This document shows positions 14,866-44,125 of a DNA stretch of 64,000 bases, piece after piece. Origin of the DNA: an uncultured Candidatus Saccharibacteria bacterium (GTDB taxonomy: Bacteria; Patescibacteriota; Minisyncoccia; Phycocordibacterales; JBBTRF01); contig CAZRTH010000001.1 in NCBI GenBank assembly GCA_964602975.1, positions 5,385-69,384 of the forward strand. Direction: 5' to 3'. Every line of letters starts with the position of its first letter. The first letter of the stretch is position 1. Position numbers and translations under genes: made by a program. The notes under the pieces were generated by a model. That model searched no databases. It was not told the DNA's origin and worked only from the letters and a program-made list of their open reading frames with translations.

Positions 14866-16110
14866 TCAGTGTGCCGATGGGGCACTTCCTGAAGCGGCCG
14901 CCGTGACCAGCACCTTGAGGGTGCTCACGGTGTAGGACGGCTCGACCTTGAGGTGTTCCCAGCCCGGGTTGCCCTTGCGGACATCCGCGAGGACTTTGCT
15001 GAAGTCCAACACGAACGAGTCGTGCGTGGCTTTCAGCGTGGGGTCCTTTTTGGCGTATCCGCTTCCGTGCTTCTCATGGAAACGGAGGCTCGCGGCTTCG
15101 ACGATTCGCCTCGCCGTCGCCATGTCATCGTTCGGTCGGATCTTCCCGACGACCATGTAGATGATGGTGATGCCATCACGTTTGGGGATGAACCCCAACG
15201 TGTATGTTTTCACCAAGAACATGTTCGTAACGACGAACGCGACCTCTTGTGATGCCACAGGTGCCGGCGGGGCAGGGGCAGCCGGTGCCACATACGTCGG
15301 CGGTGGAGCTGGTGCCGGAACCGGATCCAGATACGCAGCCGGGACCGGAATCGCGTTGGTGGATTCCAGTAGGAGGATGATCCGATCGAGTTTGTCGCCC
15401 ATGTTGTTTGCTCGTTGCTCGAGCTGTTCGATCCGGCCAGTGTTTTTTCGGCCTGCTTCCAGCGCCGCGATGGCCGTCTGCTCGGCACGGATCGCGGCGC
15501 GTTGCGCGCCGCCCGATGCCTTCTTCGCCCGCTCCATCTGCGCGATTCGCGCCGCCCACGTCGCCTCGAGCTGTTGAAGCTGAGGGTTCGATTGGACTTG
15601 CGGAGCAGGCGGGGCTTGAGGTGTCGGATTGATCACTGCCGGCTGATCCCCGATGATAGGGATCGAAGCAAGGTTCGGACGCACCGCCGTTGCCTCGAGT
15701 TGCTCGATGCGAGTCAGCAGGTTCGTCATGCTTTTGCCGATGTGCGGCAGGGTGCTGATGAGTCGCACGTCGATCTCATCCAGCTTTTTGCGGATCGCGG
15801 CGTTCTCTGCTGCGGCCTTGTCGAACTGTTCGCTCTTGTCGAGGATCTCGTTTGCTCGGCGCTTGATCGTCGTGAGTTCGGCGATGGCCTCAGTGTTCGC
15901 GCGCGCCTCGTTGATCTCGGCACGGCCGGGGATCAATCCGAGGAAGTGCGCGATGTTCAAGGCGACAATCAATGCGAGGACGAGGATGCCAAGGCCGATG
16001 ATGGTGGGCTTTTTGCGCCGACCGGCGGTCCACGCGGACACGCAGGCCGTCCACAGTATGTAGATCAGGCTGACGGTGATCAGCACAGTGAAGATGTCGA
16101 GGATGTTCAT
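14866..16110 (-). CDS. hypothetical membrane protein with coiled-coil and Pro-rich linker; high-GC gene
   Basis: N-terminal TM segments, heptad-like ERAKKASGGAQRAAIRAEQTAIAALEAGRK, PAPAPPPTYVAPAAPAPPAP tract; about 62% GC versus about 51% background. Confidence 0.5.
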   Translation of the reverse strand: MNILDIFTVLITVSLIYILWTACVSAWTAGRRKKPTIIGLGILVLALIVALNIAHFLGLIPGRAEINEARANTEAIAELTTIKRRANEILDKSEQFDKAAAENAAIRKKLDEIDVRLISTLPHIGKSMTNLLTRIEQLEATAVRPNLASIPIIGDQPAVINPTPQAPPAPQVQSNPQLQQLEATWAARIAQMERAKKASGGAQRAAIRAEQTAIAALEAGRKNTGRIEQLEQRANNMGDKLDRIILLLESTNAIPVPAAYLDPVPAPAPPPTYVAPAAPAPPAPVASQEVAFVVTNMFLVKTYTLGFIPKRDGITIIYMVVGKIRPNDDMATARRIVEAASLRFHEKHGSGYAKKDPTLKATHDSFVLDFSKVLADVRKGNPGWEHLKVEPSYTVSTLKVLVTAAASGSAPSAH

Positions 16111-16261
16111 AGTTTTCTCCGTTTTTTGAGTTGCTATTTGACCGATTTCAACGGGGAGGCAACGTGCCGCCCCTAACAATTTGACTTGTGGTAAACGCTA
16201 GCATATTTCTAATATAAAGTCAAGCTCGCAGACAGGCCGTATTTCCTGTATTATTCAAGCC

Positions 16262-28302: not shown

Positions 28303-29616
28303 GTGCGGACCGCAAAGCATATGAAAGCCCTGTTCAAAAAGATCATCATCGCCATTCTCCAATGGGAGGCCAGACTCGTGCTCAGAAGGCATCATCCGAA
28401 GATCGTGGCTGTCACCGGCAGCGTGGGGAAGACGTCGACCAAAGATGCCATCTACGCCGCTCTCGCTTCATCATTTTTTGTACGCAAAAGCCAGAAGAGC
28501 TTCAACGGCGACATTGGCGTACCTCTCACCATTCTCGGTCTGCAGAACGCTTGGTCCAACCCTTTGTTGTGGGCCGAAAATATTTGCAAAGGCCTGATGG
28601 CCGTATTTTCCTCGCATCCGTACCCCGCATGGCTGATATTGGAGATCGGGGCAGATCGGCCGAAAGATATTTCGCTCATCATGGAGTGGATCAAGCCTGA
28701 TGTCGGAGTGGTGACGCGTATTGGCGAGGTGCCGGTACATGTCGAATTTTTCAAAGATCGCGCAGAGTTGGTGTTTGAGAAAAGCCAATTGCCACGAGCG
28801 GTGAAGGCGGAAAGCGGAGGCGGCTTGCTGCTGCTCAATCTCGACGATGCCGATGTTGCCGGTTTCCGACCGCTTTCAAAAGCAAAGGTGATGACGGTGA
28901 GCCAATCCGGGCAGGCTGATTTTCGAGCAGATGCATCGGAGGTGTTGTATGAGGGTGGCAAACCGGTCGGTATTCGCTTCGCGATCCACCATCATGAGAA
29001 AACATATGAGGTGGTCCGCCGAGGCATTGCCGGCAGTCATCATTTGTATCCGGCACTGTTTGCGTTTGCTGTTGCTGTGACACAGGATGTGTCTCCGGAA
29101 AAGGCTCTTAAGGGGCTCTCAGATGAGATCAATACGCCTGGCCGAATGCGCATCTTGCCGGCGGTGAAGGGTGCCACCGTCATCGACGATTCATACAATG
29201 CCTCTCCGGTTGCTATGACCGAGGCGTTGAACACTTTGGCGGGGTTTGCTGCTCCGAAAAAGATCGTCATGCTCGGCGACATGATGGAGCTTGGCAAGCT
29301 TTCGGCTGAGGCGCATCACAAAGCAGGCATGCTTGCCGGTACGGTGGCAGATGTTCTTGTCACTGTTGGCGTACGTGCCCGCATGATGGCGGAAGGTGCT
29401 CTCGATGCCGGTATGGCCGATGCCAAAATCTTTCAGTTTGATCATGCTCAGGAGGCGGGGAAGTTTGTCGAGCAAATGCTTGGCGAGGGAGATATCGTGC
29501 TCGTGAAGGGTTCCCAATCGGTACGCATGGAGAGGGCGGTGCAGGAGATCATGGCCGAGCCTGAGCGTCGCGCCGAGCTCCTAGTGCGCCAGGATGACGA
29601 GTGGCAGAAGCGTTAG
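28303..29616 (+). CDS. murF: Mur ligase, probably UDP-MurNAc-pentapeptide synthetase
   Basis: P-loop VTGSVGKTSTKD; 437 aa fits MurF better than MurE/MurC/MurD; dcw position. Confidence 0.7.
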   Translation: MRTAKHMKALFKKIIIAILQWEARLVLRRHHPKIVAVTGSVGKTSTKDAIYAALASSFFVRKSQKSFNGDIGVPLTILGLQNAWSNPLLWAENICKGLMAVFSSHPYPAWLILEIGADRPKDISLIMEWIKPDVGVVTRIGEVPVHVEFFKDRAELVFEKSQLPRAVKAESGGGLLLLNLDDADVAGFRPLSKAKVMTVSQSGQADFRADASEVLYEGGKPVGIRFAIHHHEKTYEVVRRGIAGSHHLYPALFAFAVAVTQDVSPEKALKGLSDEINTPGRMRILPAVKGATVIDDSYNASPVAMTEALNTLAGFAAPKKIVMLGDMMELGKLSAEAHHKAGMLAGTVADVLVTVGVRARMMAEGALDAGMADAKIFQFDHAQEAGKFVEQMLGEGDIVLVKGSQSVRMERAVQEIMAEPERRAELLVRQDDEWQKR

Positions 29617-29658
29617 GAATGTGGTATATATTGAGGGCGCCGAGCGTGCCGTTTTTAC

Positions 29659-29730
29659 GGCCCTATCGTCTAACGGTTAGGACGGAAGCTTCTCAAGCTT
29701 TAAATCGGGGTTCGATTCCCCGTAGGGTCA
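29659..29730 (+). tRNA. tRNA-Glu(CUC)
   Basis: 72-nt cloverleaf. Acceptor GGCCCTA/TAGGGTC with G2-U71. D arm GTCT/GGAC. Anticodon stem GAAGC/GCTTT with loop TTCTCAA. T arm CGGGG-TTCGATT-CCCCG. Discriminator A. Confidence 0.85.
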
Positions 29731-29879
29731 CAGATTTTGAGCAAACGGAGTGCAGCGAAAAAGCGGTGACCCTAAGCTCGTACTTGAGCACGAGCGGCGG
29801 GGAATCGAAGGGGGTCTCCCATATTTTCGAGGAGTTCTGCTCCGAGAAAATGGGAAACCCGTACTGGTCCTGTAAGGAC

Positions 29880-29900
29880 CGATTCCCCGTAAGTCTCCAT
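29880..29900 (+). other. tRNA-like 3' fragment (cgattccccgtaagtctcca), shares a 12-bp core with the tRNA-Glu T-loop/acceptor
   Basis: cgattccccgta identical to tRNA-Glu positions 29713..29724; preceded by hairpin ggtcc-tgtaa-ggacc; part of a 445-bp structured non-coding stretch. Confidence 0.5.
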
Positions 29901-30175
29901 TTTACATGTTCTGGTGGTGGTTAGATAAGTGGCGGTCTGGGTTTGTGTGCGGAGATTTGGGGACGCGATTTGCGACGTCGGCTGGAGGACAGTGAGAAGC
30001 GGTAGGTCCAAATACAAAGCCACCCTCCGCGAGGAGGGTGGCCCTTGGATGTTATACCCTATCAGTTACGAGAACCGATAGACAGATACAATATAGCAAA
30101 ACCGAGCGAAAATGACAAGAATCTGGCGGATAGAGTTTTTTGTTTACCTCCGTTCAATATGATACGCTTTAACGC

Positions 30176-30793
30176 ATGTCCTCACTCCGGATGAATACTA
30201 AACCCGTAATCGCCATCGATATCGATGATGTTATTGCCGCAAACGCCACTGCGTTCATAGAATTCAGTAACAAAAGGTACGGTACACACCTGACCGTCGA
30301 TGATTACCATGAACACTGGGCCGAATTGTGGAAGGTCAGTCGTGACGAGGCCGAGCAGCGTGCAGTTGAATATCATGATTCCGGCCACATCGGAACATAT
30401 TCTGTTATCGAGGGAGCCGATCAAGCCCTTCGCCGACTAAAGAAACAATTCAAGCTCATTGCTTTGACGTCCCGCCGCAATTGCGTCAACCAACTAACAA
30501 GAGATTGGTTAGTGAAATATTACCCGAACATTTTTGAAGATATTGTGTTCTGTGGATTCTTCGATTCCCAAAAGGTAGGTATTCATTACACCAAAGGAGA
30601 GTTGGCCAAGTGTGCAGGAGCCGATTACATCATCGACGATCAGCTCAAGCACGTCTCGGCTGCCGCACAAAACGGTATCAAAGGACTTTTGTTCGGAAAT
30701 TATTTTTGGAATAAAGCCGATATTTTGCCGGAAAATGTTACTCGTGTTAAGGATTGGGAGGAGGTCTTGGATTATTTTAAGGTTGACAAATAG
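30176..30793 (+). CDS. HAD-superfamily 5'(3')-deoxyribonucleotidase-like (NT5C family)
   Basis: N-terminal VIAIDIDDVIA (DxDx[TV] HAD motif I); about 200 aa; typical NT5C size. Confidence 0.7.
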   Translation: MSSLRMNTKPVIAIDIDDVIAANATAFIEFSNKRYGTHLTVDDYHEHWAELWKVSRDEAEQRAVEYHDSGHIGTYSVIEGADQALRRLKKQFKLIALTSRRNCVNQLTRDWLVKYYPNIFEDIVFCGFFDSQKVGIHYTKGELAKCAGADYIIDDQLKHVSAAAQNGIKGLLFGNYFWNKADILPENVTRVKDWEEVLDYFKVDK

Positions 30794-30940
30794 GATCGAA
30801 TAGTGTTATTATACGACCGGTACTGGAGCTCTTTAAAAGCCGTTTTTTTCATTTTACTACAGCGGAAAGTCCCTCATGGAGCCAAGGTGGGCCTTCCTGC
30901 TGTAGTAAACCTTCTGCTAAGCAAGAATGACAAGAAGAAA

Positions 30941-31552
30941 ACTATGAAACACTTGGAATTAGTAGCACAGATTAAGTCTCTGCGTTGGGAGTTGGCGACG
31001 ATGCCTGATCTTCTGGGTCTCATGCTCCTCAGCGCCTGCGCGGCGACCGAGTTTGCGGAGTCACTCAGGCTGGCTCGCACGCTCTACCCGGGCAATCTAG
31101 CCTTCGAGGCTCTGATTGCAGGGGAGCTGGAGGTGGACAACATCCATTTCGCAGACTACCAGCGCCGCGGCGACCACAGCGCTTTCCTGTGGCATTTCAT
31201 CGAGAAGCACAACATTCACGTCAGGTGTCCTCGAGGAGTAAGAGAGGCTGGTGAGGTCTATCTTCGCTCAGTTCGCGCGCTTCCAGGTCACACTCGGGCC
31301 ATGAGCATTGTCTCTCGTGAGCGGGAGCTCCCTGGAATCTTCAGTGCGATACTGACTGCTCCGGGTTGGAATATGGAACCAGAACTGGAGGCGTTCGAAT
31401 ACTACCTCCAGCAACACATCGCCCTGGATTCTGGCGAAGGAGGGCACGCAGAGTTACTCTCGAGCTTCTCCGTGGATGACTCCGTCACCCCGTTTTACGA
31501 GGCTCGCCTGGAAATGTATCGCATTCTGCCTGTCCTCTTCACCGCACGCTAA
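30941..31552 (+). CDS. hypothetical protein, possibly DUF3050 / haem-oxygenase-like fold
   Basis: YYLQQHIALDSGEGGHAELL resembles the DUF3050 signature; weak. Start at internal Met. Confidence 0.35.
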   Translation, partial: TMKHLELVAQIKSLRWELATMPDLLGLMLLSACAATEFAESLRLARTLYPGNLAFEALIAGELEVDNIHFADYQRRGDHSAFLWHFIEKHNIHVRCPRGVREAGEVYLRSVRALPGHTRAMSIVSRERELPGIFSAILTAPGWNMEPELEAFEYYLQQHIALDSGEGGHAELLSSFSVDDSVTPFYEARLEMYRILPVLFTAR

Positions 31553-31653
31553 GTCATCTGAACCGCATTCAACACATCACCGGCAGCCTCCTGGAGGACT
31601 GCCGGTTCTTTTATTCCCTGGAGCCCGCGTACTAATTTGCTATACTTATCTAA

Positions 31654-32049
31654 ATGGAAAATCTCCCAACACCTCCTAAAGAGGCGATTCTGTATGAGGA
31701 TGCAAAGCTGTACATCTGCCTTGCTTCGTTCCCGATCACAAAAGGTCATACAGTGATCGTGTGGAAGACTAAGGCAGAGGACATACACTTGCTTTCTCGT
31801 GAGGACTACGAGTATTTGATGGATGCAGTGGATGTGGCCCGCGATGTTCTGTTGGAAAAACTGCAAGTTCAGAAAGTGTACTTGATGTACATGGACGAAG
31901 CTCGGCAGGTGCATTGGCATCTCATTCCTCGTTATGAAGAGCAAGGATTCAATTTACTTTTACATACTCCGGTCGAGACGACTGACTTTTCTCTTGCGTC
32001 GGTGTTGGAGGGCGATCTTCAAATCAAGATGGGGCAGTTTATTCAATGA
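31654..32049 (+). CDS. HIT-family hydrolase
   Basis: Histidine triad QVHWHLIPR (HxHxHxx) near the C-terminus; 131 aa. Confidence 0.8.
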   Translation: MENLPTPPKEAILYEDAKLYICLASFPITKGHTVIVWKTKAEDIHLLSREDYEYLMDAVDVARDVLLEKLQVQKVYLMYMDEARQVHWHLIPRYEEQGFNLLLHTPVETTDFSLASVLEGDLQIKMGQFIQ

Positions 32050-32052
32050 AAA

Positions 32053-32078
32053 AACGCGGCAGTTGCCTGCCGCGCTTG
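32053..32078 (-). terminator. rho-independent terminator for paralog A (hairpin cgcggcag-ttgc-ctgccgcg plus U-run on minus strand)
   Basis: 8-bp stem; the minus strand reads ...GCAACUGCCGCGUUUUUU; homologous hairpin at 34324..34345. Confidence 0.6.
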
Positions 32079-32113
32079 CGTGTTTGGTTCAAACCGCCCC
32101 AGGGGATCGGTGC

Positions 32114-32839
32114 TTAGTTCAACGGATTGCCATTCGCCGTAACGTCTTTCGCGGCATTCCGCCGGACGATGACGAAGTCGTGGCCGTGTTCGATCTCGAA
32201 GAGCTGCGGCGCCTTGCCGTTGTCGTGCTCTGTTTCGGTGGCATCCTCGGCAGGGAACTCGCGTTTGACGACGATCTTCCAGCCTTCACGGATTCCGACT
32301 TGGGTGCCCGTCTCGTGACGTTGAGGCATGTCGGCCAACAGGTGCTGACTGAAGAGAGTTGCAGCTAGGGTCGAGAGCGCCTGCAGCCGTTCCTGTCGCT
32401 GTTTGCGAGGCTCGACCTCGCTGCGATTTTTCGCGCGGGGCAAGGCGCCTGCTTTCTCAGCGAATTCGTTGCTCAGTCGGAAGAGTTCCATGGTGACGCG
32501 AGAGGTCACGACGCCAATCTCACGCTCGGTGTGAGGATCCATCGCCTGGAGGGGATGGAAGAGTTGGGAGTCTGCCGACTGTTTGCCTTGGTAGATGCCG
32601 GCCAGCGCGCGGAGGAACTGTCCCTTGTCCTGTTGGACCAAGGTCCTGCCGGGGAGGGTGATCACCTCCTCGTCCTGTGGTTTTTTGACCGCCCGACTTC
32701 CGTGACTTCTCAGCCTTGTGGGCTTGGTTTTCGGTGCCGTCGATGTCTTCATGGTGTGTCCTGTGTTTTGGTTTTTTCTCGGCCAAACTTCCGGTTGGCT
32801 CTCGGGTGCGGTACTCCTAGACGAGGAGCACGAATTCAT
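32114..32839 (-). CDS. hypothetical protein, paralog A of a two-member family (high GC)
   Basis: 241 aa; shares LRALAGIYQGKQSADSQLFHPLQ...MELFRLSNEF...KIVVKREFPAEDATETEHDNG with ORF 34378..34893. Confidence 0.55.
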   Translation of the reverse strand: MNSCSSSRSTAPESQPEVWPRKNQNTGHTMKTSTAPKTKPTRLRSHGSRAVKKPQDEEVITLPGRTLVQQDKGQFLRALAGIYQGKQSADSQLFHPLQAMDPHTEREIGVVTSRVTMELFRLSNEFAEKAGALPRAKNRSEVEPRKQRQERLQALSTLAATLFSQHLLADMPQRHETGTQVGIREGWKIVVKREFPAEDATETEHDNGKAPQLFEIEHGHDFVIVRRNAAKDVTANGNPLN

Positions 32840-32875
32840 AAAAACTTAACATTTCAAAGCGCTTGTTGTCAAATC

Positions 32876-33589
32876 ATGCGTAGTATCCTATTTATGTCTG
32901 AGACTTCGACATCCTACTTTGGTATACTTCTCCAAATGAGCAAGAGACTACTCCATACCCTCCACTGCCTCTGGCGCGGTGAAACAATGACACGGATCTT
33001 GATGCACGAGGGCCTCTCCCGCGAAACCCTGAAGGGGAAGGTGGTGGATATTGGCGGTGGCCGCAATCCTGCGTATTTCAACTATCTTCAGAAAGATGAG
33101 AGAGGCAAGACTGCTGTCTCGATAGAAGCCCTAGACGCCTCCATCTCTGGGATCGATTTTGAAAAAGACATATTGCCATATCAGAACAGCTCGATCGACA
33201 CTGTCCTGCTCTGCAATGTGCTCGAACACGTATACAACTACCGCTTTCTGCTCGGCGAGATCCTTCGTATCATGAAACCCTCGGCTCAGATGATCGGCTT
33301 CGTGCCGTTTTGGGTGGGATACCATGCCGACCCGCACGACTATTTTCGGTACACCGATGAATGTCTGCATCGTATCTTTTCGGAGGTTGGTTTCAAGAAT
33401 ATCCGCATCGTCCGTATCGGTCGGGGACCGCTCCTTGGCAATTTCAACACCGTCGTCCTTTCTCTGCCACGCTTTCTTCGCCCGATTCTTTTCTTGCTGT
33501 ACGAGAGTGCGGACCGGATCTTCGTGTGGCTACGTCCGAATAGCGTGAAGCGCAACCCGCTCGGATATTTGTTTGTAGCGGAGCGCTAG
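32876..33589 (+). CDS. class I SAM-dependent methyltransferase (Methyltransf_11-like)
   Basis: Motif I VVDIGGGRN, post-II LLCNVLEHV, IMKPSAQMIG; start set at the ATG at 32876. Confidence 0.75.
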   Translation: MRSILFMSETSTSYFGILLQMSKRLLHTLHCLWRGETMTRILMHEGLSRETLKGKVVDIGGGRNPAYFNYLQKDERGKTAVSIEALDASISGIDFEKDILPYQNSSIDTVLLCNVLEHVYNYRFLLGEILRIMKPSAQMIGFVPFWVGYHADPHDYFRYTDECLHRIFSEVGFKNIRIVRIGRGPLLGNFNTVVLSLPRFLRPILFLLYESADRIFVWLRPNSVKRNPLGYLFVAER

Positions 33590-33685
33590 TCGCCGACGTT
33601 GACAAAATTACAAAAACTGGCATAGTGTTGGAGGTTTCGGATCGACTTGCATTCACGCAAGAGTCCGAGTTTCGCTATTTGATTC

Positions 33686-34222
33686 ATGAAAACGTTCACT
33701 CCCATCACTGCGGCCGTTTTGGCCATGCTCGCTTTTGTCGGATCTACTTGGCGAGCTGGCGCCCAGCAAGCGCCTGCTCAGCCGGCCGCTGCAGCAGACA
33801 GCTTTTACGTCCTCACCAACAAGATCGAGTGGCTGTGCTCGCCGGCCATCCTCGGACCGCTCGCGACGAACGACGTGGCCTACACCGTGAAGAACATCCA
33901 AAGCAATGTCTGCGGGGTCTTCGTGATCTCCTATCCGACAAAACTGCCGGCGAAGACGCCCATCATCGTCGAGCGGCTGGATGACCTGCGAAGCTTCAGC
34001 TTCTATTTGAAAGTGGTGAAGGAAGCCAGCATTCAAGGCGGTCCACCGAGCGAATATGTTGATGGAGCGATTGTCGTTCTAGAACCTTCCAAGCCGGAAG
34101 AGGGAAAGAACATTGCCTACGTGAAGGTTGGGAAGATCTTCTACACCGGCCCGACTGGCATTCAATTCGGCCGTATTTCCAGCGAAACCTTCCATCTTCG
34201 ACGATACGGCACCAAGCCGTGA
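33686..34222 (+). CDS. secreted hypothetical protein (signal peptide), high GC
   Basis: MKTFTPITAAVLAMLAFVGSTWRAGAQQ signal peptide; no domain recognised. Confidence 0.55.
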   Translation: MKTFTPITAAVLAMLAFVGSTWRAGAQQAPAQPAAAADSFYVLTNKIEWLCSPAILGPLATNDVAYTVKNIQSNVCGVFVISYPTKLPAKTPIIVERLDDLRSFSFYLKVVKEASIQGGPPSEYVDGAIVVLEPSKPEEGKNIAYVKVGKIFYTGPTGIQFGRISSETFHLRRYGTKP

Positions 34223-34323
34223 TCAAGGACATTTGGTTCGCTAAGTCATACAGTCTGCGCCGCTCGCTCCCCGCGAGCGGCGCTTCTTTTTTTGCTTCAG
34301 CCAAATAAGAAAATAAGAAAAGC

Positions 34324-34345
34324 CCGGCAGTTGCCTGCAGGGCTT
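34324..34345 (-). terminator. terminator hairpin homologous to 32053..32078 (shared core ggcagttgcctgc)
   Basis: 9-bp stem with one mismatch; the minus strand is followed by a UUUUCUUAUUUU tract. Confidence 0.55.
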
Positions 34346-34377
34346 CGAGTTGTCGGACCGATTATTCGCTTCGAGGG

Positions 34378-34893
34378 TTACTCTTCGCAACCATTGCCGC
34401 CGTTACGGGCCAGACGCTCGCGTTCGCTCTGGATGCGCCGGGCCAGCACCTCGCCGAAGGAAACCGCTGTGCCGCCATTGAGCATACGAAGCATGGCCGC
34501 CATGGAGTCGGTCTCCTCGTTGGACTCGTGCTCGATGACGATGTGCCAGTCCACACGGAGGCCCAAATCGTCCTTCTTGAGCTTCGCGCCGATCTCGCCT
34601 TCGACCTCGACCCAGAAGAGCTGCATGGCAGTTTCGGTGAGGTTTCCCAGGTGCTTCCGTAGGTGGTTGTAGGCCTCCATCTCGGACGGATCTTTCGGCA
34701 ACGGCACTCCGAGAGCCCGCTGCTTGAACTCCATGCCGAGCCGGAAGAGTTCCTTCGCCATCTGGGAGGTGACGATGTGAACACACTTCTCGCCGAGCGG
34801 GTTGATGGGCTCGAGCGGGCGGAACAAGGCGCGGCCTTCGGAGGTCTTGCCCTTGTAGATGCGCGCGATCTCGTCGGCGAAGTCCTTTGAGCC
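34378..34893 (-). pseudogene. 5'-truncated paralog B of ORF 32114..32839 (possibly still expressed from the TTG at 34827)
   Basis: In-frame homology to paralog A (GSKDFADEIARIYKGKTSEGRALFRPLEP...) starts at the first sense codon after a TGA stop at 34894..34896. There is no ATG, only a TTG at 34827. The region further upstream is unrelated. Confidence 0.5.
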
Positions 34894-34973
34894 TCATTTT
34901 AAGGCTCCGTATTCCCGCTCTTTTATCCCCACTCTCCCTGCTCTGATTGGCGGATATTCGGTACAATGGAGGC

Positions 34974-35435
34974 ATGCGGAACACCTCAGGCTTGACTCTT
35001 GTTGAAATAATTCTCGTAGTAGCTATCGTGGGCATGATTGCCGCCCTCGGGAGCGTCTCTTTCAGCACAGTGACAGCGCGGCAGGCTCTGGACAAAAATA
35101 CCGACGCAGTGGTAGCGGTACTCGATCAGGCTCGCTCCTACACCACTTCTGCCAAAGCCGCCACCGTCTATGGGGTGCGCCTTCTTTCGACCGGCCCAGT
35201 ACTCTTTACCGGCACCACCTACAACTCCTCCGATACTTCAAACGCGCCCTTTGTCCTCGACCCGCGTCTTTCGATCTCCAATATCTCGCTGAATGGGGCA
35301 GGGCAGGATGTGATCTTCAACAAACTCACCGGTACGACCACCCAGTATGGCTCTTTCCGTGTCACTCTCACGAACACCCCGACATCATACCGAACCGTCA
35401 CTATTTATCAGACCGGCATTGTTGAGGCGCAATAA
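34974..35435 (+). CDS. type IV pilin-like / pseudopilin (prepilin N-terminus)
   Basis: N-terminal SGLTLVEIILVVAIVGMIAALG (G-[FL]-TLxE hydrophobic helix). Confidence 0.7.
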   Translation: MRNTSGLTLVEIILVVAIVGMIAALGSVSFSTVTARQALDKNTDAVVAVLDQARSYTTSAKAATVYGVRLLSTGPVLFTGTTYNSSDTSNAPFVLDPRLSISNISLNGAGQDVIFNKLTGTTTQYGSFRVTLTNTPTSYRTVTIYQTGIVEAQ

Positions 35436-35436
35436 T

Positions 35437-36000
35437 ATGTCGAATATACTGAATATGCCAAATTTCCAAAACACCGAAATCAAAACTGCAAAGCTGCGCC
35501 CAGCCCACCCCGCTTGCACGACCCGATCAGCAGGCTTCGGCTTGGTAGAGGTGATGGTCGCCGTCGGCATCATCGGCATCACTTCAGTCGCCATTTTCAA
35601 TGTGTATACAGCATATCTGCGCGCTGAATTGAACAATGTAAAAGCAGTGAAAGCGGCCTTTCTGATGGAAGAGGGGCTCGAAGCAGTGCGCCTGCTCCGC
35701 GACACGAGCTGGTCCTCCTTGATCGCGCCTGTCACGGCGAGCACTACGCAATATTTGAATTGGACCGGATCGGCTTGGCAATTCACCAGTACTCCGCAAA
35801 TGATCGATACGCGCTACGCTCGCACAGTAGTATTCACTTCTGTTTATCGTGATAGCAACAATCGCATTGCCGCCACCGGTACACTGGACCCAAACACTCG
35901 CGGCTTCACGGTGACGGTCGCTTGGCCGGATGACAACACCTTGCTCTCCACTTCCACGAAGCAGATCTCGAGCTATATCACCAACCTCTATGGCAATTAA
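35437..36000 (+). CDS. type IV minor pilin-like protein
   Basis: AGFGLVEVMVAVGIIGITSVAIF prepilin-type N-terminus; start moved to the internal Met ahead of the motif. Confidence 0.7.
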   Translation: MSNILNMPNFQNTEIKTAKLRPAHPACTTRSAGFGLVEVMVAVGIIGITSVAIFNVYTAYLRAELNNVKAVKAAFLMEEGLEAVRLLRDTSWSSLIAPVTASTTQYLNWTGSAWQFTSTPQMIDTRYARTVVFTSVYRDSNNRIAATGTLDPNTRGFTVTVAWPDDNTLLSTSTKQISSYITNLYGN

Positions 36001-36505
36001 CCCTCAAAAAATGTGCGGCTTCTCGCTGGTGGAAATGATCATCTACCTCGCGATCCTTACCGTCGTCACGATTTTTTTGGTGAATGGAATCTCCGCACTC
36101 ACCAAGAGCTACGCGGATATTCGCCTAGCGAAGGCCGTGTCGTCGTCCGCCGGAGTTGCTCTGCAGCGTATTGTGCACGAGACTCGCCAAGCGACCTCGT
36201 TCGATCTCGGTCAAAGCACCTTCGGATCCAATCCAGGTCAGCTCACTCTTGTCACCACCAACGGCAGTGGCGCCACCAGCACGGTCCGGTTCTTTGTGAG
36301 CAACGGGCTGCTGCGAGTGAGTGTTGCCGGCGTCGATCAGGGGCCGCTCACCCTTTCGGGAGCTTCTGTTACCAATTTCACCTTGTCGCTGCTCCAGAAC
36401 AGCATTTCCAACGGCGTGCGAATCACCCTCACGGTGCAGAGCAGCTTCGGCAACAAGACGCGCACCGAGACTTTTTACACTACCGCTGTCACCCGGAATA
36501 TGTGA
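35990..36505 (+). CDS. type IV minor pilin-like protein
   Basis: CGFSLVEMIIYLAILTVVTIFLV prepilin-type N-terminus. Confidence 0.7.
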   Translation: MAINPQKMCGFSLVEMIIYLAILTVVTIFLVNGISALTKSYADIRLAKAVSSSAGVALQRIVHETRQATSFDLGQSTFGSNPGQLTLVTTNGSGATSTVRFFVSNGLLRVSVAGVDQGPLTLSGASVTNFTLSLLQNSISNGVRITLTVQSSFGNKTRTETFYTTAVTRNM

Positions 36506-36517
36506 TGATTATCTAGC

Positions 36518-38845
36518 ATGAAAATGTTCTTAAAAATGACAAAGTCCTGTCGCCCCCACCCAAGCCACCAAGCAGGGCAGGTAATGATCGCCTCGGTCAT
36601 CTTTTTCCTTGGTATTGGCTTGGCGATCGTTGCCGGAGTGTCGCAGACGACTCTTCGAGATATCCAGTCTAGCCAAAATCTGCTGAAATCTCGCGAGAGC
36701 TACGCAGTGGCCGAAGCATTGCACGAGGATGTTCTCTATCGTTTGCAAAATGGCATGACCGTCAGCACAAATGAGAGTCTATCGCTCAATGGCTACAGTG
36801 CCTCCACTACGATCGCCGATGTATCAGGTGGCAAGCAGGTGACCAGTGCCGGCGACCGGGACAATTTTATTAAAAAGGTGAGCTCCTTTGTGCTCACCGG
36901 CAGCGGAGTATCCTTCAATTACGGCGTGCAAGCAGGGGAAGGGGGAATCGAACTGCAAAACACTTCTTCTATCCAAGGCAATGTCTATTCAAACGGCCCT
37001 GTCACCGGCTCGGCAGCAGTGAACAACGGCAACGCCTCGAATCCCGGTCTTTCCGGATCGGTGACCGTTTCAGGTGCTTCGCAGGGCGGCGCGGCCAGCT
37101 TTGATTTTTCCGCCGATGGTCGCTATGCCTATGTTCTGAGCTCGAATAGCTTTCAGATCGTGGATCTCAATGATCCAACCAATCCGGCAGTCGTTGGGTC
37201 GGTAACCACCAACTACACCTCGAATCCGTACCACAATACCTTGATCACTTCCGGAAATTATTTGTATATCACTTCTCTCAACTCAAGCAATGTGGATATC
37301 TACAACATCGCTTCGCCGACCAGCCCTTCGCTCGTGAGTCAGCTACCGCTCGGCAGTCCAGGAAAGAATCCGCGCATCGCCAACGGCTACCTCTACGTGC
37401 CGAATTTCAACAGCAACACGACAAAGATCGTCAATATTTCCAATCCACTCCAAGCAAGTGTTGTAGGCACGATCACCACCGTCAGCAGTCCAGTATGGGT
37501 GACTATTTCCGGAAATTATCTCTACATCGGGCATGACCTGAACGGCAACTATGGCAGCATTTACGCGTACACGCTCGACAATCCAGCCAGCCCCACATAC
37601 GCAGGGGTGATGCCTGCCGGTACGATGTATAGCCGCACCTATCCGCCCTATATCGCCAGCTCGTACATGTACGTGATGTCATATATTCTGAGCGGCATGT
37701 ATGTGGTGAGCCTATCGAATCCGGCTGTGCCGACGGTGGTGTACGCTACTGCCGCGAATAGCATTTTGGAGCCGCAATCTATCGACGGTAATGCCGGCTA
37801 TCTGTATATTGGCGTCTACAATAGCCACAACACCAACCAGCGTTCGCTCGATACCTGGAGCTTGTCTTCTCCGGCCGCACCAGTGAAAATTTCCAGCAAT
37901 GGTATCTCCAGCAGCAACGGCGGACCTACGACGGTGAAGGTGAAAAACGGTGCAGTCTTTCTACTCAACGGCGCAAACAATGCTTCTAGCGCCTTCCAAT
38001 CCTACGGCGCGATGGGTTCTGGTGGAAATACGATCACAGGCACAGTGGTTTCGGCTGGGCCAACAGGTAGCGTGACTCGTATCAACGCCGCGAGCACCGC
38101 CGGTTCTATGTACGCCAAGACGATCACCGATTCGGTCATCACCAAGGACGCCTACTATCAAACCATCTCTGGTTCGAGTGTGGGAGGCGTGTCCTATCCG
38201 GGCAGCGCCAATCAAGCGACTTCGAGTTTTCCGATCTCCGACGAAACGCTTGATCAGTGGGAAGCTGATGCTGCCGCTGGAGGAGTGATCACAACTCCGT
38301 GCCCGTATCAGGTGACTTCGACGGTGACCCTCGGTCCAGTGAAGATAAACTGCGATCTGGAGATCAGCAACGATGGCGTGGTGAACTTAGCAGGGATGGT
38401 CTGGGTGAAGGGGGATGTTTCCATGAAGAATACTTCGACGGTTAACATCAGCCCCTCCATCTCCAGCCATACCGCCGCGATTATCTCCGATGATCCCGCT
38501 AATCGCAACACTAAAGGAAAGATGGATCTCTCGAACTCAGCGACCTTCCTCGGTTCCGGAAATAATTCGTATGTCATGCTTGTCTCGCGCAACACAAGCG
38601 CCTCGGCCGGCGGCGGGGAAGTTGGCATTGAAATCTCCAACTCCATCAATGGAAAGGCCCTCATGTACGCTCCTTATGGCTTGATCGAGATTCAAAACAA
38701 CGTCAGCTTGAAGGAGGCCACCGGCTGGAAGCTTCGTTTAAAGAATAGCTCTTCAGTGATATACGAATCCGGCCTAGCCAATCTGCTCTTTACCTCTGGC
38801 CCGTCTGGCGGATATCAGATCGATTCGTGGCAGGAGATTCAATAA
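36518..38845 (+). CDS. large pilus-associated surface protein with LVIVD-type beta-propeller repeats (PilX/PilY1-like position)
   Basis: 775 aa; N-terminal TM; at least 5 repeats of GNYLYI...(V/I)D..N(I/L)SNP..P..V (LVIVD-like); Ser/Thr/Asn-rich. Confidence 0.7.
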   Translation: MKMFLKMTKSCRPHPSHQAGQVMIASVIFFLGIGLAIVAGVSQTTLRDIQSSQNLLKSRESYAVAEALHEDVLYRLQNGMTVSTNESLSLNGYSASTTIADVSGGKQVTSAGDRDNFIKKVSSFVLTGSGVSFNYGVQAGEGGIELQNTSSIQGNVYSNGPVTGSAAVNNGNASNPGLSGSVTVSGASQGGAASFDFSADGRYAYVLSSNSFQIVDLNDPTNPAVVGSVTTNYTSNPYHNTLITSGNYLYITSLNSSNVDIYNIASPTSPSLVSQLPLGSPGKNPRIANGYLYVPNFNSNTTKIVNISNPLQASVVGTITTVSSPVWVTISGNYLYIGHDLNGNYGSIYAYTLDNPASPTYAGVMPAGTMYSRTYPPYIASSYMYVMSYILSGMYVVSLSNPAVPTVVYATAANSILEPQSIDGNAGYLYIGVYNSHNTNQRSLDTWSLSSPAAPVKISSNGISSSNGGPTTVKVKNGAVFLLNGANNASSAFQSYGAMGSGGNTITGTVVSAGPTGSVTRINAASTAGSMYAKTITDSVITKDAYYQTISGSSVGGVSYPGSANQATSSFPISDETLDQWEADAAAGGVITTPCPYQVTSTVTLGPVKINCDLEISNDGVVNLAGMVWVKGDVSMKNTSTVNISPSISSHTAAIISDDPANRNTKGKMDLSNSATFLGSGNNSYVMLVSRNTSASAGGGEVGIEISNSINGKALMYAPYGLIEIQNNVSLKEATGWKLRLKNSSSVIYESGLANLLFTSGPSGGYQIDSWQEIQ

Positions 38846-42751: not shown

Positions 42752-44125
42752 TTAAAAGTCGTTCCCTCCGACAGCCGCACCGAAGTCCCCGAAATCAGAT
42801 TTTTCAATACTCTGGAATGTCGTCTTTTTGTCGTCGAAGTAGAGCTCCACAACACCAGTCGGACCATTTCGATGCTTCTCGATCATGATCTTCGCGATAT
42901 TTGGCCGGCCGGAATCTTTGTTGTACTTGTCTTCGCGATGGATGAACAAAACGATGTCCGCATCCTGCTCGATGCTTCCGGAATCGCGAAGGTCCGACAA
43001 CCGAGGCTCGCCACCGCGCTGCTCCACAGCTCGAGAGAGTTGGGAAAGAGCGATCACTGGCACCCTGAGTTCCTTGGCAAGCTGTTTTAGAGAGCGGGAG
43101 ATCTCGGTGGTTTGTTGGACGAGATTATCGTTGTTCTTGGTCTGTGTCGGGGTCATCAGCTGGAGGTAGTCGACGATGATGAGGCCGAGTCCTTTTTCTT
43201 TTTTCAGCTTGCGAGCTACCGAGCGCATCTTGAGAATATTGTTTCCAGCTTGGTCGTCGATATAGATCGGCGCACGGGAGAGGCGGTCCATCGCTTCGCG
43301 GAGACGGACAAAATCTTCTTCAGCAGCGATGCGGCCGTTGCGCAAGCTCCAAGAATCGATCTGAGACTCCGCAGACAACATACGATCCACGAGAGACTGT
43401 GCCGACATTTCGAGCGAGAAAATGGCGACAGCAGTGTTGTGATTGATCGCGGTCTTGCGAGCAAAATCGAGCGCCAACGATGTCTTACCCATCGAAGGTC
43501 GTGCTGCGAGGATGATCAGGTCGGATTCCTGAAAGCCGGAGAGCTTGTTGTCGAGCTCTCTAAAGCCGGTCGGCACACCGCGCAGTTCGCCTTTGTTGTG
43601 AGACAACTTGTCGAAGCGCTCCCAGGCTTCATTCAGTGTGTCTTTGATGGCCACCACTTTGTGGCCATTGTCAAAACTCGTCACTTCAAAGACCCGCTTT
43701 TCTGCTTTGTCGAGCAGTTCATTAATTTCCGATGATTCGTCGTATCCGAGGCCGGAGATGAATTCCGAAGCATCGATGAGTTGGCGCATCATGAATTTGT
43801 TCTTCACCGCAGTGCCGTAGTGGACAATGTTGGCGGAGGAGGGCACGGCGTTTGCGAGCTCGGCGATATAACTGGCGCCGCCCACTTGGTCGAGCTGGTT
43901 GTTCTCACGCAGGCGGGTGGTGAGGGTGAGCATGTCGATGGGCGTGTTCTTGGTGAAGAGCTCCATCATCGAGCGGAAGATGATGCGATGCTTTTCGGAA
44001 TAGAAGACGCGGTCGTTGATCGAGTCGTTGATCTCGTGCATCGCGTCGGAGCGGAGCATAATCGAACCGAGCAACGCTTTTTCAGCGTCGAGGTTCTGTG
44101 GAGGCACGCGAAGGTTTGTGGCCAT
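42752..44125 (-). CDS. dnaB: replicative DNA helicase DnaB
   Basis: 457 aa; Walker A ARPSMGKTSLAL; RecA-like C-domain; no intein. Confidence 0.9.
   Translation of the reverse strand: MATNLRVPPQNLDAEKALLGSIMLRSDAMHEINDSINDRVFYSEKHRIIFRSMMELFTKNTPIDMLTLTTRLRENNQLDQVGGASYIAELANAVPSSANIVHYGTAVKNKFMMRQLIDASEFISGLGYDESSEINELLDKAEKRVFEVTSFDNGHKVVAIKDTLNEAWERFDKLSHNKGELRGVPTGFRELDNKLSGFQESDLIILAARPSMGKTSLALDFARKTAINHNTAVAIFSLEMSAQSLVDRMLSAESQIDSWSLRNGRIAAEEDFVRLREAMDRLSRAPIYIDDQAGNNILKMRSVARKLKKEKGLGLIIVDYLQLMTPTQTKNNDNLVQQTTEISRSLKQLAKELRVPVIALSQLSRAVEQRGGEPRLSDLRDSGSIEQDADIVLFIHREDKYNKDSGRPNIAKIMIEKHRNGPTGVVELYFDDKKTTFQSIEKSDFGDFGAAVGGNDF

Follow-up and report, generated by a model that had tools for sequence, protein, structure and literature searches.

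Why does one of two related, neighbouring genes in a patescibacterial chromosome lack a start codon, and what kind of region holds the pair? The paralogs, here called A and B, lie on the minus strand of a 64,000-nucleotide (nt) stretch of contig CAZRTH010000001.1 (the window). The window is chromosomal DNA of the Patescibacteria, or candidate phyla radiation (CPR), of the Paceibacteria / "Candidatus Taylorbacteria" type. An earlier note on this DNA had read the region as an acquired GC-rich cassette, possibly an immunity-like paralog array, later truncated. The reading that we judge probable is as follows. A and B are a pair from an orphan protein family, with A an intact unit, B a beheaded ancestral copy, and high GC content a trait of the family itself. 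Within this reading, A as the sole functional family member in the window is the best explanation, and the evolutionary event is ordinary accessory-gene decay beside an intact paralog in a variable interval. The truncation described in the earlier note stands, as does the co-inheritance of gene and terminator; its GC figure, its acquired GC island, its immunity array and its truncation by the pilin operon do not.

Paralog A (32114..32752, minus strand) is the complete copy, with 212 aa from ATG 32752, as placed by the NCBI start (M30), alignment and the family profile. Paralog B (34378..34893, minus strand) is a 5′-deleted remnant of 171 codons, defined by in-frame homology, a family hidden Markov model (HMM) and comparison with orthologs. 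Their relationship, first noticed by eye, is borne out by BLASTP (33% identity across 120 aa, E = 2e-19), and the motifs quoted for them, IYxGKxS, ELFRLxxEF and W.IV, are found in the paralogs. The family HMM gives each ~160 bits and detects only these two copies within the window. The A protein opens with a disordered, basic N-tail of ~43 aa, continues into the conserved alpha/beta domain (~123 aa) and ends in a C-tail that is acidic. It is an intact, strongly diverged second copy in the variable interval between a tRNA-Glu gene and a pilin operon. Either a duplication in this lineage or arrival from some related genome may account for it; an exact-sequence look-up of A (P0001) in public assemblies returned no contig carrying it.

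The open reading frame (ORF) of A extends to 32839 (32114..32839, minus strand). Its first 29 codons (32839..32753) are 5′ leader and non-coding; that is, the ATG at 32839 sits within the leader and is not the start. M30 agrees with the "MKT/MST" N-termini of the family as well as with the leader assignment of the upstream codons. This 29-codon in-frame extension is a trap for ORF calling, as is a 230-aa Arg-rich shadow ORF (34403..35095, minus strand) that overlaps B in another frame.

The history of B is best read from related contigs, which were reached through family members (P numbers below) and through a neighbouring 775-aa protein. Their loci (L numbers) share a conserved frame: RsmH, FtsL-like, PBP2, MurF, tRNA-Glu(CTC), the variable interval, the minor-pilin operon, YqeY and RmuC. 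In the window the left boundary is tRNA-Glu(CTC) (29659..29731, plus strand; ARAGORN and Rfam), which follows MurF in every relative. The right boundary is the minor-pilin-like operon (34974..38845, plus strand; Pfam and relatives), encoding three N_methyl prepilins and the 775-aa LVIVD-type protein; three consecutive genes carry the N-terminal methylation motif PF07963, as in the relatives. The B-type gene, wherever present, is divergent from the first pilin gene, and this order is seen in the window, L089 and L090/94/95/99/100. L002/L003 and L005 are short contigs, holding only the B-type gene, pilin genes and part of a homolog of the secreted protein encoded beside B. By an all-frame HMM search, each B-bearing locus has a single family gene, the window has two and L096-L098 have none. 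To judge from this gene order, the position of B beside the pilin operon is the ancestral arrangement, seen in four related Paceibacteria ("Ca. Taylorbacteria"-like) lineages. It follows that the pilin operon did not cut B. The earlier proposal of a truncation where that operon begins, by insertion, is contradicted further by the pilin-proximal block of the shared spacer (34921..34973, plus strand; alignment), the last ~55 nt before the pilin ATG, which is kept in all relatives with or without B. The loss at B is, by this comparison, an internal deletion on B's side of the shared spacer.

Five loci, with four distinct sequences among them, keep the B-type gene intact and show what the deletion removed. 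Read toward the family gene, their spacer holds the ~55-nt pilin-proximal block, the promoter TTGACA-N18-TGcTAATGT, a ~85-nt leader and the ATG. The orthologs in L001/L090, L002/L089 and L005 have this promoter, the conserved leader, the ATG and an N-tail of 34-47 aa, all of which are absent at B. One ortholog, P0005, is seemingly tail-less; its locus has an upstream ATG and a 34-aa tail, and thus all B-type orthologs carry an N-tail. Calculated from locus coordinates, the pilin ATG and the first conserved codon of the domain are 89 nt apart in the window and 320-322 nt apart in L090/L089. The net loss at B is ~231 nt, and promoter, two-hairpin leader, start codon and N-tail are gone. B is therefore a genuine 5′-truncated copy, as had been supposed. 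The ~70 N-terminal residues said to be missing are actually ~45 relative to the orthologs; the extra 29 codons of the A ORF are leader, not coding sequence.

At the deletion junction (34894..34920, minus strand), ~30 nt of uncertain homology stand in place of ~260 nt present in the orthologs. The B frame is shut by an in-frame TGA (34894..34896), homology starts 4 codons past it, and upstream of B its own frame is closed by three stops. The start geometry first described is correct: there is no in-frame ATG, and the first canonical in-frame start is TTG 34827, from which NCBI annotates a 149-aa product. The junction also contains, unmentioned in the earlier note, a GGAG (34908..34905) and an ATG (34897..34895), forming GGAG-N7-ATG (34908..34895), with the ATG 1 nt out of frame with B. 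A second, independent Logan assembly has the identical junction sequence. No sigma-70-like site is found within ~500 nt upstream of B on the minus strand. At the junction, GAGCGGGAATACGGAGCC could by eye be a vestige of leader hairpin 1, but the covariance model described below does not detect it. Since the only nearby Shine-Dalgarno/ATG pair is 1 nt out of frame, B is most likely a silenced pseudogene, recently silenced and on the way to the full loss seen in L096/L098. The proposed course is that B, the ancestral copy, occupied its syntenic place with the minor-pilin operon diverging from it on one side and the secreted-protein gene converging on the other, and that a net deletion of ~231 nt in this genome took its promoter, leader, start codon and N-tail. 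B would then not be expressed, and A would stand in for it. Reading of TGA as sense was rejected as a rescue for B: PriA, HIT and the secreted-protein gene all end in TGA, and the B frame has two more stops upstream. The window uses the standard genetic code, with 0 internal in-frame stops in 17 of its genes (table 11).

The elements absent at B have counterparts at A. The putative promoter of A (32843..32872, minus strand), read from the sequence, has TTGACA at 32872..32867, an 18-nt spacer and TG-n-TAAGTT, with the −10 at 32848..32843 (TGtTAAGTT for the −10 region); it falls under the threshold of the promoter scan and aligns with the ortholog promoter. The 5′ leader of A (32753..32850, minus strand) has hairpins at 32831..32811 and 32799..32782, after which come an A-rich run and ATG 32752; covariance model R1 scores it at 69.5 bits (E = 1.4e-14). 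In the orthologs the two hairpins are CCCC-GwGT-GGGG with outer pairs and GCCGAC-CAGGA-GUCGGC, again followed by an A-rich run. Between orthologs the leader core is 91-97% identical, the family proteins there 37-47% and the neighbouring proteins 69-90%. The leader of A has both hairpins at equivalent positions, with compensatory changes, at only 57-61% identity to the ortholog leaders. R1, built from six leaders, finds exactly one match per family gene of the A/B subfamily, and no match near B, in gene-less genomes or upstream of distant family members. Rfam (E ≤ 1) gives no leader match in L001, L002, L005 or window 29-36 kb, only tRNA. The idea that the conserved spacer serves the pilin promoter was discarded: gene-less genomes are without that block yet keep the pilin-proximal 55 nt. 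We suggest that each subfamily gene would form a self-contained single-gene unit. Such a unit would comprise an extended −10 sigma-70-type promoter, a ~85-nt leader with two hairpins, a coding sequence for a basic disordered N-tail, the ~123-aa domain and an acidic C-tail, and an intrinsic terminator with the conserved apex CAG-GNAA-CTG.

The terminators also tie the paralogs together. That of A (32052..32077, minus strand; terminator scan and alignment) has a stem, a GCAA tetraloop and a U-tract, and also faces the convergent HIT gene. That of B (34319..34346, minus strand; read from the sequence and alignment) has a GCAA tetraloop, one internal mismatch and the U-rich tail TTTTCTTATTTTC. The homology claimed for them holds: segments 32050-32077 and 34318-34345 are identical at 24 of 28 positions, and the window has exactly two copies of the 13-nt hairpin core GGCAGTTGCCTGC, where 0.06 would be expected. 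When A, B and four orthologs are aligned, 93.1% of cells are paired and 6 of the 12 pairs are changed on both sides; the pairing score is reached in 0 of 500 shuffles, and slid controls are 35-57% paired, from only six sequences. The three apical stem pairs are invariant in the six, and the loop is GNAA in five of them and AGAA in L005. The apical CAG-GNAA-CTG is present behind the window's family genes and at 4 of the 5 ortholog terminators read, L005 (loop AGAA) being unmatched by the pattern; gene and terminator were thus inherited together, as the earlier note held. The motif CAGGNAACTG occurs only at family terminators in the window and the fetched loci (~0.6 Mb of related sequence), except for one L040 site. 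A genome-wide element akin to repetitive extragenic palindromes was ruled out, since the motif is found only behind family genes. These hairpins resemble intrinsic GNRA-tetraloop terminators in their GC-rich 9-12 bp stem, 4-nt GNAA loop and U-rich tail. Unlike in generic terminators, the apex is retained across proteins just 33-47% identical, a conservation that exceeds a generic terminator's need. One stem position is G-C in the terminators of A and B and A-U in those of all four orthologs; in this small sample, the shared pair hints that the two copies have exchanged sequence in this genome.

The GC content of the region, put at 58-60% in the earlier note, is 55.9% for 32053..34896, against a window mean of 52.0%; this places it in the top 0.4% of same-length windows. 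The excess is patchy rather than continuous: A has 59.6%, the spacer between A and a methyltransferase gene 46.2%, the methyltransferase gene 52.4%, the secreted-protein gene 56.1% and B 61.8%. GC in the methyltransferase gene and in the A-methyltransferase spacer is level with the genome mean or lower. In every lineage examined, among syntenic orthologs as well as distant members, family genes have 59-62% GC, with third-position GC (GC3) of 0.62-0.84, where host genomes have 46-53%. Because family genes are GC-rich in every lineage, the local excess is not evidence of import, and its use as a sign of acquisition falls. A second GC-rich stretch of the window lies at 14866..16179 (minus strand), where the 15-16 kb bin reaches 60.8%; its product is an orphan protein of 437 aa that has no Pfam match and combines a membrane helix at the N terminus with coiled-coil-like repeats and Pro/Ala-rich linkers.

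The interval between tRNA-Glu and the pilin operon differs from genome to genome, with five different contents among those compared. In the window it holds NT5C, a 249-aa DUF3050-like protein, HIT, A, the methyltransferase, the secreted protein and B; among the genomes compared, A, methyltransferase, HIT, NT5C and the 249-aa gene are unique to this one. The Hainich groundwater lineage (L090/94/95/99/100) has small ORFs, LysE, DUF305, the secreted-protein homolog and the B-type gene there, with HicA in L095 and L099. L089 has ~1.5 kb without a sizeable ORF, then the B-type gene; L096/97 is empty; L098 has RelB and DUF305 only. Given the gene-less relatives L096/97 and L098, the family gene is accessory, not housekeeping. 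The toxin-antitoxin genes (HicA, RelB), LysE and DUF305 of the relatives' intervals are at L094 4715..6913, L095 5006..5233, L098 7613..8370 and L099 1195..2473.

Between the paralogs lie the two genes that had been named there. The class I S-adenosylmethionine (SAM)-dependent methyltransferase (32987..33589, plus strand; alternative start 32936 possible) has a glycine-rich SAM-binding motif I (VVDIGGG) and matches Methyltransf_23 at 29.0 bits (cutoff 27) and Methyltransf_11 at 26.3 bits (cutoff 21.2) in Pfam. Its best NCBIfam matches are far under the cutoffs, and no homolog is found in the relatives' loci. The signal-peptide-like protein (33686..34222, plus strand; 178 aa, no known family, defined from the sequence and the relatives' loci) has its own terminator at 34257..34283; its signal peptide was read from the N-terminal sequence by eye. 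It is 43-51% identical to its homologs, versus 69-90% for neighbouring proteins, and evolves as fast as the family gene. In the window, the Hainich lineage, L002 and L005, its gene and the B-type gene converge. The secreted protein is missing wherever the B-type gene is missing, and also in L089, which keeps the B-type gene. Its single-sequence structure model (predicted local distance difference test score, pLDDT, 47.5) was not used.

To judge from gene content, the interval behaves as a small hypervariable islet without an integrase. Like tRNA-adjacent genomic islets, it has tRNA-Glu(CTC) immediately before its variable content in every genome compared. It differs from them in that the window interval has no integrase, duplicated tRNA 3′ end or flanking direct repeats, and its right boundary is a conserved chromosomal operon. 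A mobile element was set aside as a candidate: no integrase is among the 29.7-34.4 kb genes, there is no attachment-site (att) repeat, and no direct repeat of the tRNA 3′ end is found in 29600..35000. The acquired cassette of the earlier note survives in part. The interval that contains A, methyltransferase, HIT, NT5C and the 249-aa gene does differ in content in every relative examined; the absence of an integrase and an att-like repeat speaks against the cassette, as does the synteny of B, the secreted-protein gene and the pilin operon in several lineages.

Family, fold and conserved leader are all new. When 1.84 billion cluster representatives were searched exhaustively with the profile, 62 family proteins emerged at E ≤ 1e-3, so far only from Patescibacteria-type metagenomic contigs. 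Word-indexed searches for homologs of A and B led back to the two genes alone, and a first scan of the genome collection with a family pattern returned no relative; the broader alignments A2 and A6 were too diverse for pattern-based locus searches. The core is ~123 residues (~125 aa in profile matches), with secondary-structure order alpha-beta-alpha-alpha-beta-beta, and is modelled by AlphaFold2 (AF2) with pLDDT >93. The usual N-tail has 25-85 residues, rich in Pro/Ser/Ala/Thr/Lys/Arg and net positive, and the C-terminal tail is acidic. No family member has a convincing Pfam match, A and B have no match in NCBIfam, PHROGs or PADLOC, and the family profile has no significant match among PDB sequences. 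No fold relative of the core is found in PDB or BFVD, and no family relative in viral contigs. A winged-helix DNA-binding fold was rejected, as the domain has no structural similarity to solved winged-helix domains. The family is comparable to lineage-restricted CPR/Patescibacteria families of the domain-of-unknown-function (DUF) type, which are likewise small, found only in metagenomic CPR-like genomes, without a Pfam, NCBIfam or PHROG model, and patchy among close relatives. It differs from existing DUF-type families in being without any model and in having its own conserved leader RNA and terminator. In six proteins of 290-330 aa (P0033, P0040, P0044, P0049, P0051 and P0062) the profile matches in two stretches, so the domain also occurs as a tandem two-domain protein. 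Distant members P0006, P0007 and P0009 adjoin a 249-aa TrmB-family regulator (L006 8001..10773; L091 4452..7220; L093 69..1514); in L006/L091 the distant family gene also adjoins a Peripla_BP_6 solute-binding protein, and in L006 it directly follows HU.

Several points count against the reading of A as the working unit and B as a beheaded copy. The 171 codons of B are intact, every family-invariant residue is kept, and its HMM score (163.9 bits) is level with those of intact orthologs; given this intact frame, B may still be in use. A is no nearer to B (33%) than the orthologs are to one another (37-47%). The leader covariation rests on effectively two distinct sequences, and the leader folding z-scores (~−0.6) are not significant. 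The frame and the score of B are also the ground for the view that it is a working gene, making 149 aa from TTG 34827, or read from the GGAG-N7-ATG at 34897 through a sequencing error or ribosomal frameshifting. The genome would then run two family members, one naturally tail-less. This view is helped by the GC3 of B, which at 0.84 is the highest of all family genes, by a well-placed Shine-Dalgarno/ATG that aligns with the internal Met of a 'PWQM' motif in P0003 and P0005, and by database family members of which some start 2-6 residues ahead of the domain. At least one apparently tail-less entry, P0005, is however a mis-called start, and the junction ATG is out of frame in both assemblies, with 10 nt between it and GAC TTC in the window where the equivalent internal Met codon of L002 has 9 nt. 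No +1 slippery site is recognisable by eye in the stretch ATG AGG CTC AAA GGA C. With a start at TTG 34827 the protein would be without the greater part of conserved helix 1 and its I-Y-x-G-K motif; the conserved promoter and leader are gone, and ~500 nt upstream on the minus strand hold no sigma-70-like site. A working B is thus unlikely.

The folding statistics bear on the leader too, which might instead act at the DNA level, as operator or promoter region of the family gene, or be an independent gene for a small RNA, with its conservation unrelated to the family protein. Folding energies no better than those of shuffled sequence, and an automatic alignment that yields just two compensatory pairs, speak for such an element, and protein-binding DNA could equally give 91-97% conservation. 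Yet the block lies on the gene's strand, downstream of the −10 element, and reaches the start codon; the version at A retains both hairpins in place despite its divergence; the element is missing where the gene is missing (L096, L098) and at window B; and it matches no Rfam family. We regard this explanation as rather doubtful. The cassette that was first proposed, that is, a GC-rich segment acquired horizontally, with an immunity-like array beside a secreted toxin-like protein, later cut by pilin insertion or rearrangement, fares worse and is very improbable. Its appeal lies in the interval, whose content varies among relatives and elsewhere includes HicA and RelB, in the occurrence of family gene and secreted protein together in four lineages, both fast-evolving, and in the regional GC rank. 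The synteny of B, secreted-protein gene and pilin operon in several lineages means that these were not acquired together with A and the methyltransferase. The pilin-proximal spacer is conserved with or without B, the high GC is a family trait in every host genome, and the pilin-insertion and GC points are already contradicted; integrase, att repeat and viral-contig relatives are all missing. For A, B and the secreted protein, searches of Pfam, NCBIfam, PHROGs and PADLOC return no domain of a toxin, immunity or defence kind. Polymorphic toxin/immunity arrays do offer a likeness, in a small fast-evolving cytoplasmic protein with a degraded paralog nearby, a fast-evolving secreted neighbour and a variable interval that has toxin-antitoxin genes in relatives. 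The locus departs from them in having no such domain, only two copies, and an intact copy without a secreted partner (A is placed between the HIT and methyltransferase genes); B and the secreted-protein gene are convergent, with separate terminators, and share no operon. The immunity-like array is dropped on these grounds.

We return to A and B as a pair of single-gene units, one intact and one decayed, to ask what the protein may do. Its patchy presence, its divergence above that of its neighbours, the co-occurrence with the secreted protein, the position beside the pilus genes and the conserved promoter and leader support some regulated, dispensable and fast-diversifying role. Because of the basic tail and the leader conservation, its sole supports, we tentatively entertain a small cytoplasmic regulatory or nucleic-acid-binding protein with its own leader as the point at which its synthesis would be controlled; against this guess, which is possible rather than likely, stand a core that is slightly acidic and the missing fold match. 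Small basic proteins, for example ribosomal proteins, may have autoregulatory structured 5′ leaders, a likeness that serves as a lead only. The family shares with such systems a short structured leader directly before a single small-protein gene, and its leader is far more conserved than the protein, which has a basic disordered tail. Unlike ribosomal-protein leaders, the family leader has no Rfam match, and binding of the leader by the family protein is conjecture; unlike ribosomal proteins, the family protein is accessory and fast-evolving.

Around the locus are housekeeping genes for PBP2, MurF, MurA, LysRS/AspRS-type and CysRS synthetases, DnaB, RecR, RmuC and YqeY. The window DnaB is 94% identical to that of metagenome-assembled genome (MAG) ELA631 and 58-71% identical to those of dozens of further MAGs, mostly labelled Ca. 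Taylorbacteria, Ca. Saccharibacteria, Paceibacterota or Patescibacteria group. This DnaB (42752..44125, minus strand; 457 aa) is without an intein, as is that of L098. In L094 (17497..20196) and L096/97 (L096 17123..19804) DnaB has 893-899 aa and includes an intein that bears a LAGLIDADG endonuclease. Ahead of the first pilin gene, a TACAAT kept in all relatives stands 7 nt from the ATG and a GGAGG only 1 nt from it; by this arrangement the transcript of that gene looks leaderless or near-leaderless.

For annotation, A begins at 32752, not 32839, and B should be flagged as a 5′-truncated pseudogene instead of a 149-aa coding sequence. The ~123-aa domain, with a confident AF2 core and no PDB or BFVD relative, is a clean candidate for a new domain entry, and as an orphan domain it suits structural and functional work in the Patescibacteria, where most lineage-specific genes lack explanation. 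The leader, conserved at 91-97% before a protein conserved at 37-47%, is a candidate new cis-regulatory RNA. According to PMC11623550, type IV pili are central to episymbiosis in cultivated Patescibacteria; on that account, the variable module by the minor-pilin operon is a reasonable place to search for host-range factors. A bolder proposal, which we hold to be speculative and improbable, is that the family gene and its near-invariant two-hairpin leader make up an undescribed Paceibacteria RNA-protein regulatory module, in which the protein would feed back on the leader and, with the secreted protein, would be a pilus-tied diversifying factor in an arms race. If the proposal is true, the unit would be an accessory factor that diversifies rapidly and is tied to the type IV pilus locus, through which these episymbionts engage their hosts, and its repeated loss, decay and replacement, as of B by A, would reflect an arms race at the host interface.

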